Shown here in pieces: positions 55,324-63,131 of a DNA stretch of 64,000 nucleotides; position 1 is the stretch's first letter; each line of letters starts with the position of its first letter. The notes under the pieces are model-generated. The model did not search any database. It was not told the DNA's origin and was given only the letters and a program-made list of their open reading frames with translations. Made by a program: the position numbers and the translations under genes. This DNA is from Promethearchaeota archaeon (lineage in GTDB: Archaea; Asgardarchaeota; Lokiarchaeia; Sigyniarchaeales; SOKP01): the NCBI GenBank assembly GCA_019894975.1, contig JAGXNO010000008.1:28898-92897 (forward strand), written 5' to 3'.

Positions 55324-56286
55324 TTAAATATACTGGAACAATATTTCGAAATCAGAAAAGTCGAAAGGTTTTAATATATAACCATTAGCTTTCGTTTCAG
55401 CCATGTTCTTTTCTACCTCTGAACCAGGAATCGCAGTTAATAAAAACACAGGAATCTCTTTATATTTTTTGTTATCTTTAATCATTTTACAGATTTCATA
55501 CCCCGAAATATCTGGCAAGATAATATCTAATAATATTAATTTGGGAACTCCGCCTCTTAATTCATCAATACCTTTATTTCCACTCACTACACCTTTACAT
55601 TTATAACCTTTACTTTCAAAATAGCTAGTAAGTAACCTTATAGTTGCTAAATCATCTTCTATCAGTAAAATATCATATTGAGGCGGGGTTTCTTCAGTAT
55701 TAATATCGTCTAAAATATTAATTATCTTATTTTCAAGAAGCATACTTTGATCAAAGATATTTTTAATTGTCGATAATACATCTTCGTCTAGTTCATCTTT
55801 ATAATTTTCTAAAAGGAGTTGACTAAATCCCTTGATAGTAGTTAATGGTTCTTTTAGGGCATGCGAAACGTTGGATAAAGTTTTTTCATTTATTCCCTTT
55901 AGTCCACCGCTAAGTAAATCTGACTTTTTTTCAATGTAATAATCTACACTATCTCGGATTAATGCCGATATCGTTGAATATTTATGAGATTCCTTAAAGT
56001 CTTGCCATTTAGATTTAGTTTCGTCTGACACATATAAAGAAATTCTTTCTTTATCCCTATCGTAAATTTTTTCCCCTTTTAACCACTTTTTAAATCCTTC
56101 AGTTATAGTTCCACGCCATTTAGCATATTTATCTGTTTGGTCCTCATAGATTTTCATTAATTTTTTGGCACGTTCACCCTCTAAATCCAAGTTTTCTATT
56201 TCCTCATCAGTCAAACTCACTCTTTCAGGATCTTTTTCGTGATTTTCATCTTTCTTATTTTTAGTTTTCTTGTTCTCGCCCGAAAT
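55324..56286 (-). CDS. RHH-HisKA(DHp)-receiver protein, paralog 1 (track start 56220; frame open to ATT 56286)
   Basis: RISLYVS...TISALIRDSVD (RHH); SHALKEPLTTIKGFSQLL (H-box); IEDD, LLDIILP, LTA and KPF (REC). Confidence 0.85.
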   Translation of the reverse strand: MSGENKKTKNKKDENHEKDPERVSLTDEEIENLDLEGERAKKLMKIYEDQTDKYAKWRGTITEGFKKWLKGEKIYDRDKERISLYVSDETKSKWQDFKESHKYSTISALIRDSVDYYIEKKSDLLSGGLKGINEKTLSNVSHALKEPLTTIKGFSQLLLENYKDELDEDVLSTIKNIFDQSMLLENKIINILDDINTEETPPQYDILLIEDDLATIRLLTSYFESKGYKCKGVVSGNKGIDELRGGVPKLILLDIILPDISGYEICKMIKDNKKYKEIPVFLLTAIPGSEVEKNMAETKANGYILKPFDFSDFEILFQYI

Positions 56287-56576
56287 TTTCTTCCCAACTC
56301 GTTAAGTTTTAAGATTTCTATTTTTATAAAATTGTAAAAAATAAACTATTAATAATTTTGTATACTCTGCTTGAAATTTGTATCTATTCTTATGTTTTCT
56401 TTTTTTTTTTATAAAAATTTTTAACAAAATTGTGTTTGTTTACAATAATCTTTAAATTTTTATCATTTAATAATTCTTTTTTATTATAAATATTAATATG
56501 ATACGTGAGTATGAGTCTAATACAACTTTAATAATAAATTGAGAGTATCAGAAGGGAGAAATACTTTGTAAGGATT

Positions 56577-57548
56577 CTATTTGCCTTCTTTTCCTTTTAA
56601 GATATTAAATATAATTTCAAAATCAGAAAAATCAAAGGGTTTTAAGATATAACCATTAGCATTGGTCTTATCCAAATTCTTTTTCACTTCAGATCCTGAT
56701 ATAGCTGTTAAGAAATAGACGGGTATGTTCTTATATTCTTTATCGGACTTAATTGTTTTGCAAATATCATAACCACTTAAATCTGGTAGAATAATATCTA
56801 ACAAAATGAGTTTTGGAATCGCGTTTCCAAGTTCCTCCAATCCTTTGGAACCACTTACGACTCCTTTACATTTAAAACCTTTACTTTCGAAATAGCTCTT
56901 TATTAAGCGAATAGTTGCTAAATCATCTTCGATTAATAACACATCATATTCGGATTCAACTTTAATGTTGTCAAGAATATTAATAATTTTCTTTTCCAGG
57001 AGTACACTCTGCTCAAATATATTCTTGACAGTTTCCAATACTTGATCATTCAACTTTTCTCTATAATTCTCGATAAGTAATTGTGAATATCCTTTAATCG
57101 AAGTGAGTGGTTCTTTTAATGTATGAGAAATATTAGATATAGTCTGAGGATTTAATTTACCTAAATTTGTGCCTTGTAAAAGCTCTTGGCTTTCAATGAA
57201 TGCATCCACCGCTTCCCTAATTAATTTTGAAATGGTTAAAGTCCCATCATTTTGGGTATAATCCAACCATTTCTTTTTTGTATCTTCAGAAACATATAGA
57301 GAAATTCGCTCCTTATCTCGTTGATATATTTTCTCTCCTTTTTGCCATTTTTTATAGCCCTCAGTAATTATTCCTCGCCATACCGCATATCGATTTGTTT
57401 CTTTTTCGTACCTTTTCATATCCTCAGTTTTCTCAATGGAATTATTATCAATTTTTATTAATTCCTCATTTTCTGAGGTGCCATCATCAATGTTGGTAGG
57501 ATCTCCTATGCTATTTGAAGGCGGAATTTTTTGACCACTAACTGCTAT
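56577..57548 (-). CDS. RHH-HisKA(DHp)-receiver protein, paralog 2 (track start 57419; frame open past 57548)
   Basis: RISLYVS...TISKLIREAVD; SHTLKEPLTSIKGYSQLL; IEDD, LLDIILP, LTA and KPF. Confidence 0.85.
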   Translation of the reverse strand: MAVSGQKIPPSNSIGDPTNIDDGTSENEELIKIDNNSIEKTEDMKRYEKETNRYAVWRGIITEGYKKWQKGEKIYQRDKERISLYVSEDTKKKWLDYTQNDGTLTISKLIREAVDAFIESQELLQGTNLGKLNPQTISNISHTLKEPLTSIKGYSQLLIENYREKLNDQVLETVKNIFEQSVLLEKKIINILDNIKVESEYDVLLIEDDLATIRLIKSYFESKGFKCKGVVSGSKGLEELGNAIPKLILLDIILPDLSGYDICKTIKSDKEYKNIPVYFLTAISGSEVKKNLDKTNANGYILKPFDFSDFEIIFNILKGKEGK

Positions 57549-57864
57549 CGATAGTTTTACTTGAAAACCTAATATTAGAACTTATATTTAATGTTTTTTT
57601 ATTAGTTAAATTTTGAAGATCGATCGTAGGAAAACTTTTTGGATTAAAATTCACATAGCAAAAGATAATTTTTGCACACAAATTTTTTCGAGTAAATAAT
57701 ATTCGAGCTCCCCAAATCTGAATATTTCCTAAGTATAACCCATCTAAGGTTATTTAGCACAGTACTGATATATATATTTGCAATTCAATGCATTCTAAAA
57801 CCTCAATTTTTTCTTTATAAATAACTGGTCCGAACAATTAATACAAATAAATAGATGATAAAAA

Positions 57865-58527
57865 ATGAGTCTTGAAGAATTAGTCAGTCTTGAACGAATT
57901 GAGAATTTTAACAATATAAGACTAAAAGAAACTTATTTAGTTTATAATCTTCCTTTATCAAAATTGTTTGTTGAAGTGCTAGAAGAATTAAAAAAAGATA
58001 TTTTTCCTGTTTTAGATATTCATATACTTCTTTATAGTTTAAGGTTTGTTCCCTTCACAGATGAAGCAGAAGGATTAGAAGCTTTTAAGGCTCTTAAAGC
58101 TTGTTTGGATAAGGACTTATATGGAAGTCCTGTTCAATGGACCTCTACAAAAATATGTAATAATTTAGAAAAATTATGTGAATTGATTGTTTATGAGTAC
58201 TTTATCGAAGGTTCTCTGATTGTATATCACAATTATGAAATAGAGTGGGACCTAAGTGTTTGTATCTCACCACCATCCTAAATTAATAATTTGTCGGAGT
58301 CTTTAGACTTAAATTTTAATGTTTATGTTTCATCCATGATGGAAAAACCACAATCCTATTATGAATGGCAGTTACGGTATAATTCAAAGAAAAAAGGGAA
58401 AAGTACAAAAAGAGAAAAAAAGAAAAATTCCCTTGGAATCGAAGATTATCAGTTTGAAAAGTTTGTGGAAAACTGGAAAAAGAAGAATCTTCCTGAAAAA
58501 GGACACTCAAGAAAAATTGTATTCTAA
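57865..58527 (+). pseudogene. hypothetical gene possibly split by one in-frame TAA (58279-58281); alternatively two small ORFs
   Basis: ORFs 57865-58281 and 58291-58527 are in the same frame, separated only by TAA plus three sense codons. Confidence 0.4.
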
Positions 58528-58540
58528 TTATTCACGATTT

Positions 58541-58881
58541 ATTTTGTACACGAATAATGTGAAAAAGTTTTTTAACACCAATTTTTATCTATTTTTTGAC
58601 AGTTTTGTAGGAAGTTAATGATTGTACCGACAAAATAAACTATTTTTTATAATAAAAAGTATCACATTGATAATATATTGTTTCAAAAACAATGAGTTCT
58701 AAGTTTTTTACATTAAATAGTATAACAAATTTTTTGTCTAGATATTTTTTTAAGCAAAAGTATGTTCATATATAAATGATTTTGTACAACAAATACATTT
58801 AAATATTCGATTATCGTTTATTATTATAACAAAAAAGTTTTTTACACCAAATAATATTGGTTGTGTGTTCAAAAAAAACTT
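58541..58881 (+). promoter_or_regulatory. repeat-rich upstream region of tfb
   Basis: ATTTTGTACA at 58541 and 58779; AAGTTTTTTA(A)CA near 58565, 58701 and 58835. Confidence 0.45.
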
Positions 58882-58925: not shown

Positions 58926-59816
58926 ATGGTTGTTGAAATTACACCTCAGGCAAATTTTTGTCCTGAATGTGGCGGGGGAACAATCTCTATCCAACAGAGA
59001 GGGGAGACAGTGTGCCAGCAATGTGGTTTAGTGGTTGGTGAGAAAGAAGTTGATGTTTCTCATAGCGGAATAAGAGCTTATTCAAAACAGGAGAAGGATA
59101 AAAAAGAACGGACTGGTTGCCCTATGTCCATTTTAATGCCAGATATAGGGTTAAGTACTGTTATCGATAGAACTAAGATTAAAAATCCTGATTTGAGAAG
59201 GGCGACGAAATGGAACACGCATTTATCATGGGAAAAAAGAAATATGCTTATTGCCATAACTGAATTAAAGAGAATTGGCGGCAATTTAAACTTTCCAGAG
59301 CGTGTGAAAAAGGCAGCAGTTCGTCTTTATAAACAGGTATTCAAAAAGAATTTATTGAGAGGAAGGTCAATAAATGGAATGATTGCGGCATGTGCTTATT
59401 ATGTCTGCAAACAAGAAAGAGTACCTATTACACTTCAGGAAATCTTAGATGAGGCATCAATTAATAATAATATCGTTAAAAAATGTTATAAGATTCTCGT
59501 ACGAGAGTTGAATCTAAAATCACCACATATCGATCCAGTTGCGCTCATTCCTAGGTATTGTGCTGATTTAGGATTAGGCATCAATGTAGAGAAAGAAGCA
59601 ATAAAAGTATTAACAAATTTTATTGCAACTAATTCAATCTGCGGTAAAGATCCAAAAGGCTTATGTGCAGGATCGATTTATTTAGTAGCAAAGCTAAAAA
59701 ATAAAAAGGTAAGCCAAAAGGATATTTCACGAGTTATAGGGGTGACAGAGGTAACCCTACGCTCGAGGTATAAGGAATTTTTACAACATATTAGTTTTAA
59801 TTTTCATACAAATTAA
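58926..59816 (+). CDS. tfb: transcription initiation factor IIB (TFB paralog)
   Basis: CPECG...CQQCG zinc ribbon, ERTG, RGRS, GKDPxGL and VTEVTLRSRYKE. Confidence 0.95.
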   Translation: MVVEITPQANFCPECGGGTISIQQRGETVCQQCGLVVGEKEVDVSHSGIRAYSKQEKDKKERTGCPMSILMPDIGLSTVIDRTKIKNPDLRRATKWNTHLSWEKRNMLIAITELKRIGGNLNFPERVKKAAVRLYKQVFKKNLLRGRSINGMIAACAYYVCKQERVPITLQEILDEASINNNIVKKCYKILVRELNLKSPHIDPVALIPRYCADLGLGINVEKEAIKVLTNFIATNSICGKDPKGLCAGSIYLVAKLKNKKVSQKDISRVIGVTEVTLRSRYKEFLQHISFNFHTN

Positions 59817-61807: not shown

Positions 61808-61857
61808 TGTTTATAGAGTCTAAACTTTATATACAATAATGTTTATAGGTTCTAAAC
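61808..61857 (+). promoter_or_regulatory. two 18-bp imperfect palindromes flanking a TATA-like box upstream of the LRR gene
   Basis: TGTTTATAGAGTCTAAAC (61808), TTTATATA (61826) and TGTTTATAGGTTCTAAAC (61840). Confidence 0.55.
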
Positions 61858-61946
61858 AAATCGAAATAATCATAATCTTAATCCTAACACAAGTTTTAAA
61901 TAGGAATGTAGTCATATATAGCAAAAAGAAAAAATCTTGCAGTATT

Positions 61947-63131
61947 ATGACTAAGGAGTTTCGCATCAATCAGTTTCTATCATTACGATTAGAGTGTGGT
62001 CAAACTATGATATATGTGGCAGGAGAGGAGTTCATACAATGCAAGTCTCTGCTGTTAGATATTCCGGTGGCAGAGATAAGTAGTCTTGAAATGATTGACT
62101 CGATTGATGAAGCTGTACAAGAGATTGAAAACTTCTCGCAGAGAAATATGAATAGAACAAGAATCTCCCCTGAAGTAGAGTTTTGGGGCCATTGCTCGAA
62201 TTTACAAACCTGGTATGAACATGATTATGACACACGGCTACTTCACTCAAATCTTGCATTCTCGCTGCTTGGCAAGCTTACGGAGGTCGGAGATACTCTT
62301 GCTAAAGGAATATTTAAGACAGAGTTAATAAATCGTTATGAAAACGGTACTGACAAAACTCGAGAGTATATAAGGGATAGTAAAGCTTTAGGATATTTAT
62401 CGAAAGAAGAGATACTGAATTTAATGCTAAAGACAGAGGATCTCATAGCTTTGACAGAATTTGCTGAAGAAGTCTGGGTTAAAGAGGATCCTTATAAAAT
62501 AATTTTTGCGTTAATGAGTGAAGAAGAAGTCAAACTGGAAAATAGAAAAGTGACTGAGCTAGACCTATCAGGTATAGATCTGGAATTGGAAAAGTTTCCA
62601 GAATCTGTACTAAAATTGAAGAGTTTAAAAAAATTAGTTTTAAGGGGGAATTATTTTAGGGAAATCCCCGAAAACATTAGTGAACTAAACATTCTCAAAG
62701 AATTATGGTTAAATGGTAATGAAATCTCTCATCTACCAGACTCAATTTGTCACATTACGTCGCTCGAGAGATTGGAGGTAGGTGGAAATAAAATTCACGC
62801 TTTACCCAAAAATATTGGGGATTTGAAACTTTTAAGATCCTTAGGTCTGGGAAGTAATGAGATAACAAACCTCCCCGATCCATTCTATAAATTGGAATCG
62901 CTTGAAACACTCTCACTTGCAGATAACAAATTAAACGATCTCCCTGAGACATTCTGTAATTTAGCATCTCTTAAATGGCTGTCTCTATCAAACAATAAAT
63001 TAAGTAGACTGCCTGAATGCTTTTTAAATCTCAAATCGCTTGAATATTTAGATATTAGCAAAAATCCTCTTACAGAAAGTCAAGAATTATTAGAAAAAAT
63101 AAAAAAATTGAGAATTAAATCAAGGTTTTAG
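61947..63131 (+). CDS. leucine-rich repeat protein with a conserved N-terminal domain; start re-placed at ATG 61947
   Basis: About 8 LRRs of 23 aa (LxxLxLxxNxIxxLP); N-terminal EFWGHCSNLQxW...YDTRLLHSNLAF block. Confidence 0.9.
   Translation: MTKEFRINQFLSLRLECGQTMIYVAGEEFIQCKSLLLDIPVAEISSLEMIDSIDEAVQEIENFSQRNMNRTRISPEVEFWGHCSNLQTWYEHDYDTRLLHSNLAFSLLGKLTEVGDTLAKGIFKTELINRYENGTDKTREYIRDSKALGYLSKEEILNLMLKTEDLIALTEFAEEVWVKEDPYKIIFALMSEEEVKLENRKVTELDLSGIDLELEKFPESVLKLKSLKKLVLRGNYFREIPENISELNILKELWLNGNEISHLPDSICHITSLERLEVGGNKIHALPKNIGDLKLLRSLGLGSNEITNLPDPFYKLESLETLSLADNKLNDLPETFCNLASLKWLSLSNNKLSRLPECFLNLKSLEYLDISKNPLTESQELLEKIKKLRIKSRF

Follow-up and report, generated by a model that had tools for sequence, protein, structure and literature searches.

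A stretch of 64,000 nucleotides from the genome of a Promethearchaeota archaeon (contig JAGXNO010000008.1, positions 28,898 to 92,897; hereafter the window, whose first letter is position 1) carries two adjacent, co-oriented paralogous genes, A (56577-57419, minus strand, 280 residues from an ATG) and B (55324-56220, minus strand, 298 residues from a GTG). Their products join a ribbon-helix-helix (RHH) segment, a dimerisation and histidine phosphotransfer (DHp) hairpin of the HisKA type and a receiver domain. We consider it fairly probable (roughly 0.6) that A and B work as dimeric response regulators which bind DNA and are switched at the receiver aspartate by kinases encoded elsewhere. A preliminary description, made from the letters of the window, had placed a built-in His-Asp relay at the centre of the design. 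The mechanism most likely turns on the receiver as switch, with the DHp hairpin serving as scaffold; a relay in A and B is the less favoured alternative.

Pairwise alignment of the two proteins gives 66% identity over 274 residues, a spacer of 356 AT-rich bases separates their genes, and the order of parts is the same in both: an N-terminal module of 33 residues, the RHH, the HisKA-type DHp and the receiver. No Pfam match to HATPase_c was found in A or B. The arrangement given in the preliminary description (adjacent co-oriented paralogs with a common part order and no HATPase_c) was thus borne out by open reading frames, alignment, Pfam and predicted fold; the distance between the DHp histidine and the receiver, put there at about 50 residues, proved to be 61 residues in A and 64 in B, still much less than an ATPase domain of ~110 residues would need. 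The end assigned to the pair, 57548, falls inside an open frame upstream of the ATG of A (57420-57581, minus strand, 54 codons) that has no ATG, GTG or TTG. The translation of this frame resembles the N-terminal extensions of homologues, and in several genomes of the same genus the N-terminal motif likewise begins ~40 residues into an open frame. The open frame suggests that A may use a non-canonical start or may recently have lost its start codon.

The receivers of A (residues 160-266; 56622-56942, minus strand) and B (residues 184-290; 55351-55671, minus strand) reach 70.7 and 69.1 bits, respectively, with Pfam Response_reg (PF00072, cut-off 30.2 bits), and the phosphorylatable aspartates are Asp208 in A (codon 56796-56798) and Asp232 in B (codon 55525-55527). 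The pocket of A is complete (E164/D165, D208, T238, K260) and the pocket residues are present in B also, so that the receivers are intact, as had been described. In the full-length monomer model of A the receiver has a predicted local distance difference test score (pLDDT) of 81-91 and is joined to the second DHp helix by ~10 residues. Conservation was assessed in 25 close homologues of A and B and in a diverged set of 28 full-length family representatives clustered at 50% identity. The phospho-Asp is invariant in the former and kept in 28/28 of the latter, together with the acidic pair (27-28/28, the second acid in 27/28), the Thr/Ser (26/28) and the Lys (27/28). This conservation points to the receiver as the universal switch of the family. 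As kinase-less proteins with an intact receiver, A and B would have to be phosphorylated in trans, a point on which we agree with the preliminary description.

The DHp hairpin is recognised by Pfam HisKA (PF00512, cut-off 26.9 bits) with 35.6 bits in A (residues 91-150; 56970-57149, minus strand) and 34.0 bits in B (residues 112-174; 55699-55887, minus strand), and in the full-length model of A it is built from two long helices (91-122 and 125-150). The histidine, His99 in A (codon 57123-57125) and His120 in B (codon 55861-55863), lies in an H-box that reads S-H-T/A-L-K-E-P-L. The deviation noted earlier is therefore real: H+1 is Thr in A and Ala in B, and H+4 is Glu in both. In HisKA proteins an acid at H+1 is required for kinase activity and Thr or Asn at H+4 for phosphatase activity (Willett & Kirby 2012, PMC3510030). 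Within the diverged set the histidine is kept in 17/28 members, and the 11 others, which have Y, F, N, V, L, R, E or K in its place, retain a perfect receiver pocket; H+4 is Thr in 0/28 and Asn in 1/28, H+1 is Asp or Glu in 15/28 and also in a third paralog of the genome (see below), and the Leu two residues past H+4 is kept in 27/28. Since A and B have neither of the required residues and the histidine is variable, the hairpin appears to be kept for something besides the chemistry of its histidine, and the simplest conserved role would be to dimerise the protein and to pack the receiver.

The same alignments bear on the single-chain phosphorelay, in which the DHp histidine would be phosphorylated in trans, from a second protein's receiver or a kinase's ATPase domain, and would hand the phosphoryl group to the aspartate of its own chain (or the reverse), the protein being both a ChpT/Spo0B-like phosphotransferase and the output. 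This would be in line with a HisKA score above the Pfam cut-off, with a histidine that is invariant in the 25 close homologues, with the acid at H+1 that the third paralog and 15 of the 28 members share with real kinases, and with a receiver tethered ~10 residues past the second DHp helix, near the histidine end of the hairpin, a position that would make intramolecular transfer geometrically plausible. However, 11 of the 28 members have lost the histidine and keep the pocket, the acidic residue at H+1 is missing in A and B themselves, and the simpler route from a kinase directly to the receiver aspartate needs no histidine. The proposed likeness to ChpT and Spo0B fails because the C-terminal ATPase-like domain of these proteins is absent here. 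With the aspartate in 28/28 and the histidine in 17/28 members, and without the H+1 and H+4 residues in A and B, a relay may operate in these two proteins and does not define the family, contrary to what had been proposed; we regard it as rather unlikely. The conservation of the histidine, named beforehand as decisive for the relay, thus turned out to be divided: complete among close homologues, which hints at some importance of the residue in this lineage, and partial in the diverged set.

The RHH segment was assigned from predicted structure. Neither Pfam nor NCBIfam calls an RHH in A or B, the RHH_1 model matches 4/37 family members with a best E-value of only 0.031, and the best match of the region to a PDB profile is SvtR (2kel, an RHH regulator of an archaeal virus) with a weak E-value of 0.23; the RHH is therefore shown by its fold instead. 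Residues 1-88 of A were modelled with AF2 from aligned short, diverged members of the family (pLDDT 86), and the model consists of a helix (2-8), a hairpin (13-18), a helix (20-26), an extended stretch and two further helices (45-58 and 63-83). The RHH occupies residues 36-83 of A (57171-57314, minus strand), with the strand K-E-R-I-S-L-Y-V-S followed by the last two helices, and by alignment residues 57-104 of B (55909-56052, minus strand), where the strand is identical. Foldseek against the PDB placed the RHH domains of NikR, ParD2, CopG, CopA, ORF56 and PutA at the top (E about 0.5-1), and an independent all-against-all aligner (VIA) retrieved TacA, MazE, ParD2, PutA, NikR, Arc, omega and SvtR over residues 34-88 (Z 4-5.8), the PutA domain superposing at a root mean square deviation of 1.0 over 44 residues. 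Each of these scores is modest when taken alone, but the searches agree, and the modelled segment is an RHH fold; the RHH of the preliminary description is thus upheld by the predicted fold, with Pfam silent on both proteins.

Two positions of the RHH are strongly conserved in the diverged set: the strand arginine (Arg38 in A) in 26/28 members and the serine at the start of helix B (Ser64) in 27/28. These are the positions with which RHH domains contact bases and backbone, and their conservation argues for DNA binding as the output. The segment could instead be a protein-protein or antitoxin-like dimer element that binds no DNA, with signalling through the partners of the N-terminal module. 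The Pfam RHH models fall short of significance and the module occurs on many proteins that do not bind DNA, as this would predict, but almost all of the fold matches are DNA-binding RHH domains and the strand Arg and helix-B Ser are conserved, so that we give this alternative very little credence.

We then placed A and B among the signalling proteins of their own genome (3.9 Mb, 175 contigs). It contains 15 HisKA and 18 HATPase_c matches, equivalent to about a dozen complete kinases, and 0/18 of the HATPase_c matches fall on the contig of the window, in accordance with the earlier remark that no cognate kinase is encoded there. The receiver proteins above cut-off number 11: six are stand-alone, two have C-terminal parts of unknown type and three have the RHH-DHp-receiver layout, namely A, B and the third paralog, which are also the only ones with a recognisable DNA-binding domain. 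Set against the dozen or so kinases, these three proteins are likely to be the transcriptional exit of the two-component network. The third paralog (L003:913-1662, on C87 of the genome; 249 residues) lacks the N-terminal module and has Asp at H+1; it adjoins a short protein with an MCP signal domain, and a kinase frame of 1029 residues lies ~1.8 kb away. Elsewhere, a pair from another genus is interspersed with genes for three PAS kinases and two CheY-like proteins, and the accession numbers of two members from GC14_75 adjoin those of PAS kinases, a gene neighbourhood read from the numbering. Another receiver frame of the genome (L027, C87:156385-156729) is broken by one in-frame TAA, with a downstream open reading frame that begins in mid-receiver, and is possibly a pseudogene.

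An abundance of kinases next to few output regulators could also be expected if A and B were kinase modulators or phosphate sinks, that is, if the orphan DHp formed heterodimers with the DHp of a kinase, as in RetS-GacS, or the receiver drained phosphate, DNA binding being secondary. A DHp with a receiver and no ATPase domain is found among the NCBIfam matches as well, the top one of which is a hybrid kinase. Such a role is nevertheless improbable in our view: the DHp of A is only distantly like the DHps of the kinases in the genome (best E 5e-9), and few positions of the family are conserved as well as those of the RHH, which points to a DNA-binding output.

The genomic neighbourhood offers a candidate target. 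Divergent from A lies a gene for a paralog of the basal transcription factor TFB (58926-59816, plus strand; Pfam TFIIB and Zn_Ribbon_TF), and the order TFB (divergent), A, B recurs in six loci from three genera, the TFB being 80-88% identical to that of the window. The genome has eight TFB paralogs; the copy adjacent to the pair is 55-60% identical to the two paralogs closest to it. An alignment of seven genomes shows conserved non-coding blocks upstream of TFB: a TATA-like box (58795-58805, plus strand) and T-rich/GTGTGT blocks (58824-58878, plus strand). A core, ATTTAAAT, ~125 nt ahead of the TFB ATG is invariant, and the T-rich and GTGTGT blocks that come after it are partly conserved. A related element, GTGGT-C/A-AAAAA, precedes the ATG of A by ~110 nt in the three genomes of the genus that were examined (the window, L018 and L025). 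These conserved blocks before TFB and A are candidate promoter or operator elements.

Other signals in this spacer were considered as well. The pattern GTGKTMAAAA occurs three times in the 64 kb, always between A and TFB, where 1.31 occurrences are expected; as 16/100 shuffles reach three and these three sites were themselves the source of the pattern, it was rejected as evidence on its own. A palindrome, TGTACA, upstream of TFB was likewise discarded as a conserved site, as it is not kept beyond the genus. The element AAGTTTTTTA(CA) is found three times upstream of TFB (58565, 58701 and 58835, within 58562-58857) at a spacing of ~135 nt, with the last copy inside the conserved TFB leader, and the triplet looks like a duplicated promoter segment. 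Finally, an open reading frame of 138 residues between A and TFB (57865-58281) matches nothing in Pfam and is absent from the six other loci, where the spacer measures only 535-1145 bp; it is perhaps specific to this lineage, or perhaps no gene at all.

For dimer geometry, switching, targets and kinases we infer the following scheme. Dimers are to be expected and A-B heterodimers are plausible, as had been suggested, the RHH strand being identical in the two proteins and the first helices of DHp and receiver nearly so. Two chains would be joined by a four-helix bundle of their DHp hairpins; by pairing the chains, the bundle would set the two RHH halves side by side, so that they could form a two-stranded, DNA-reading ribbon. 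The receiver, on its linker of ~10 residues from the end of the second DHp helix, would come to lie near the histidine at the start of the first, below the RHH. Ordinary histidine kinases of the PAS type from elsewhere in the genome would phosphorylate the receiver aspartate, and this would alter the packing of the receiver on the DHp/RHH end and with it DNA binding or higher-order assembly. The promoters of the pair itself and of the divergent TFB paralog are the likely targets. The histidine would be an accessory, in A and B perhaps storing phosphoryl groups or pairing with the aspartate of its own chain, in a family mechanism that could do without it.

Several observations weigh against the regulator scheme. 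In the full-length monomer model the first 100 residues, including the RHH, have a pLDDT below 56 and the DHp region one of 49-72, and we accordingly draw no inference on domain packing from this model. The individual fold-search scores are weak (Foldseek E about 0.5-1, Z about 4-6), the candidate operator motif is no more frequent in the window than chance allows, and the invariance of the histidine among the 25 close homologues hints that this residue matters in the lineage.

The N-terminal module (residues 1-33 of A, 57321-57419, minus strand; residues 22-54 of B, 56059-56157, minus strand, from alignments and a hidden Markov model (HMM) of the module) is predicted by AF2 as helix, beta-hairpin and helix, with pLDDT 88-95 over the first 30 residues of A. 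It matches no Pfam family in A or B, and the ESM Atlas returned no usable match for it. The HMM, built from 35 family members and run on a six-frame translation of the genome, found the module in A (E 5e-17) and B (4e-16) and in various other places: four times in tandem in a frame of 343 residues (C118:11736-12764; 2e-17), at the start of an ABC-transporter ATPase (L004:1465-2643, C153; 5e-11), at the very C-terminal end of the A' subunit of RNA polymerase (Rpo1N; 1e-7), and at the end of a frame of 419 residues (C101:36799-38055; 4e-5) and of a membrane protein frame (C15:3-380; 6e-4). Elsewhere it is carried by an Arf-like GTPase-receiver protein, a leucine-rich repeat (LRR) protein and a beta-helix protein. 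From these occurrences the module appears to behave as a mobile terminal tag.

The copy on A' (L032:1495-1593, equal to C129:4731-4829, minus strand, with counterparts L036-L059) follows a linker rich in Lys, Glu and Pro. A search for A' matched 91/92 genomes, in the great majority of the matched genomes of the family the whole tail could be aligned, and A' terminates in the module in each of ten further genera retrieved. Three genomes of a sister family also have the module on A', one of them in two copies, and no RHH-DHp-receiver regulators were found in these. A recent paper on archaeal RNA polymerase subunits makes no mention of such an A' tail. In one genome of the same genus (L046, G156:C4) the A' frame contains an in-frame TAG, with another copy of the module after it. 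A weak match of one module-bearing protein to Cauli_VI (the N-terminal domain of RNase H1) was dropped; the Cauli_VI model gave no match at E <= 1 with A, B or the other module copies of the genome. A metagenomic protein of 533 residues (P0196) has an extra Cys/His-containing domain in front of the module-RHH-DHp-receiver core, and this domain is shared with an LRR protein encoded in the window at 61839-63131.

The distribution of the family was determined with the N-terminal 88 residues as query in 301 genomes of the phylum. A match was found in 64/68 genomes of the GTDB family to which the window belongs (1-10 copies each) and in 0/233 genomes of the 29 other Asgard families. The same residues gave only 91 matches among 1.8 billion representative sequences, and clusters 74-98% identical to A number over 120, all of them labelled as Asgard metagenome-assembled genomes. 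With the whole protein, the ESM Atlas returned nothing beyond clusters of the family itself and small bacterial HisKA/receiver ones, which we take as leads only. As far as sampled, the family thus seems to be confined to one family of Lokiarchaeia-type Asgard archaea.

The design itself is not new. The RHH-HisKA-REC layout in GC14_75 was recorded in the census of Galperin, Makarova, Wolf and Koonin (2018), in the text and in Table S3, with Lokiarch_05110/KKK46010 and Lokiarch_07240/KKK45742 as members (PMC5847659). These proteins have the domain order and the lineage of A and B and show no difference in kind, and a further protein of GC14_75 (KKK44156.1, our P0045) is 85% identical to A; A and B are further members of a catalogued class. 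The census gives the layout one sentence, without function, N-terminal module, TFB linkage or variable histidine (PMC5847659), and a full-text literature search returned no further paper on the RHH-DHp-receiver design. As to whether the architecture is already a characterised family, it is catalogued and not characterised.

The likeness to known systems is partial in each case. Like A and B, regulators of the OmpR/PhoB and NarL types join a receiver with a full pocket to a DNA-binding domain, are phosphorylated by separate kinases and couple dimerisation to DNA binding, but A and B have an N-terminal RHH in place of a winged helix or helix-turn-helix, a C-terminal receiver and a DHp in between. 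ChpT and Spo0B share with A and B a DHp-type hairpin with a histidine and no working ATPase; they have an ATPase-like domain of their own at the C-terminus and neither receiver nor DNA-binding domain, and the histidine is not conserved across the RHH-DHp-receiver family. Archaeal proteins of the types 'HisKA, no HATPase' and REC-(PAS/GAF)n-HisKA, which have been proposed to be phosphate acceptors or phosphatases (PMC5847659), likewise have a HisKA hairpin with its histidine and no ATPase; they carry sensor domains and no DNA-binding domain, and A and B lack the Thr or Asn at H+4 that goes with phosphatase activity. In NikR and PutA, both among the top fold matches, an N-terminal RHH has its DNA binding set by a C-terminal domain within an obligate oligomer, in response to a metal or proline, where A and B would respond to receiver phosphorylation.

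Few response regulators of archaea act through a DNA-binding output, and no Asgard example has been studied. In this family a variable histidine beside an invariant aspartate provides a natural experiment on the role of a DHp hairpin after loss of the kinase domain. The locus owes its experimental worth to its linkage with TFB and to the module that it has in common with RNA polymerase: TFB adjacency and the A' tail offer two concrete, testable routes from a signal to the basal transcription apparatus. The sharing of the module is accounted for most economically by a common docking partner or by self-association, and it is conceivable, though we advance it only tentatively, that the N-terminal module of A and B is a docking domain shared with RNA polymerase. 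If the module copies do bind one common partner or each other, the regulators would feed phosphorylation signals into RNA polymerase or a shared hub, and together with the linked TFB this would amount to a signal-controlled switch of basal transcription in the closest prokaryotic relatives of eukaryotes.

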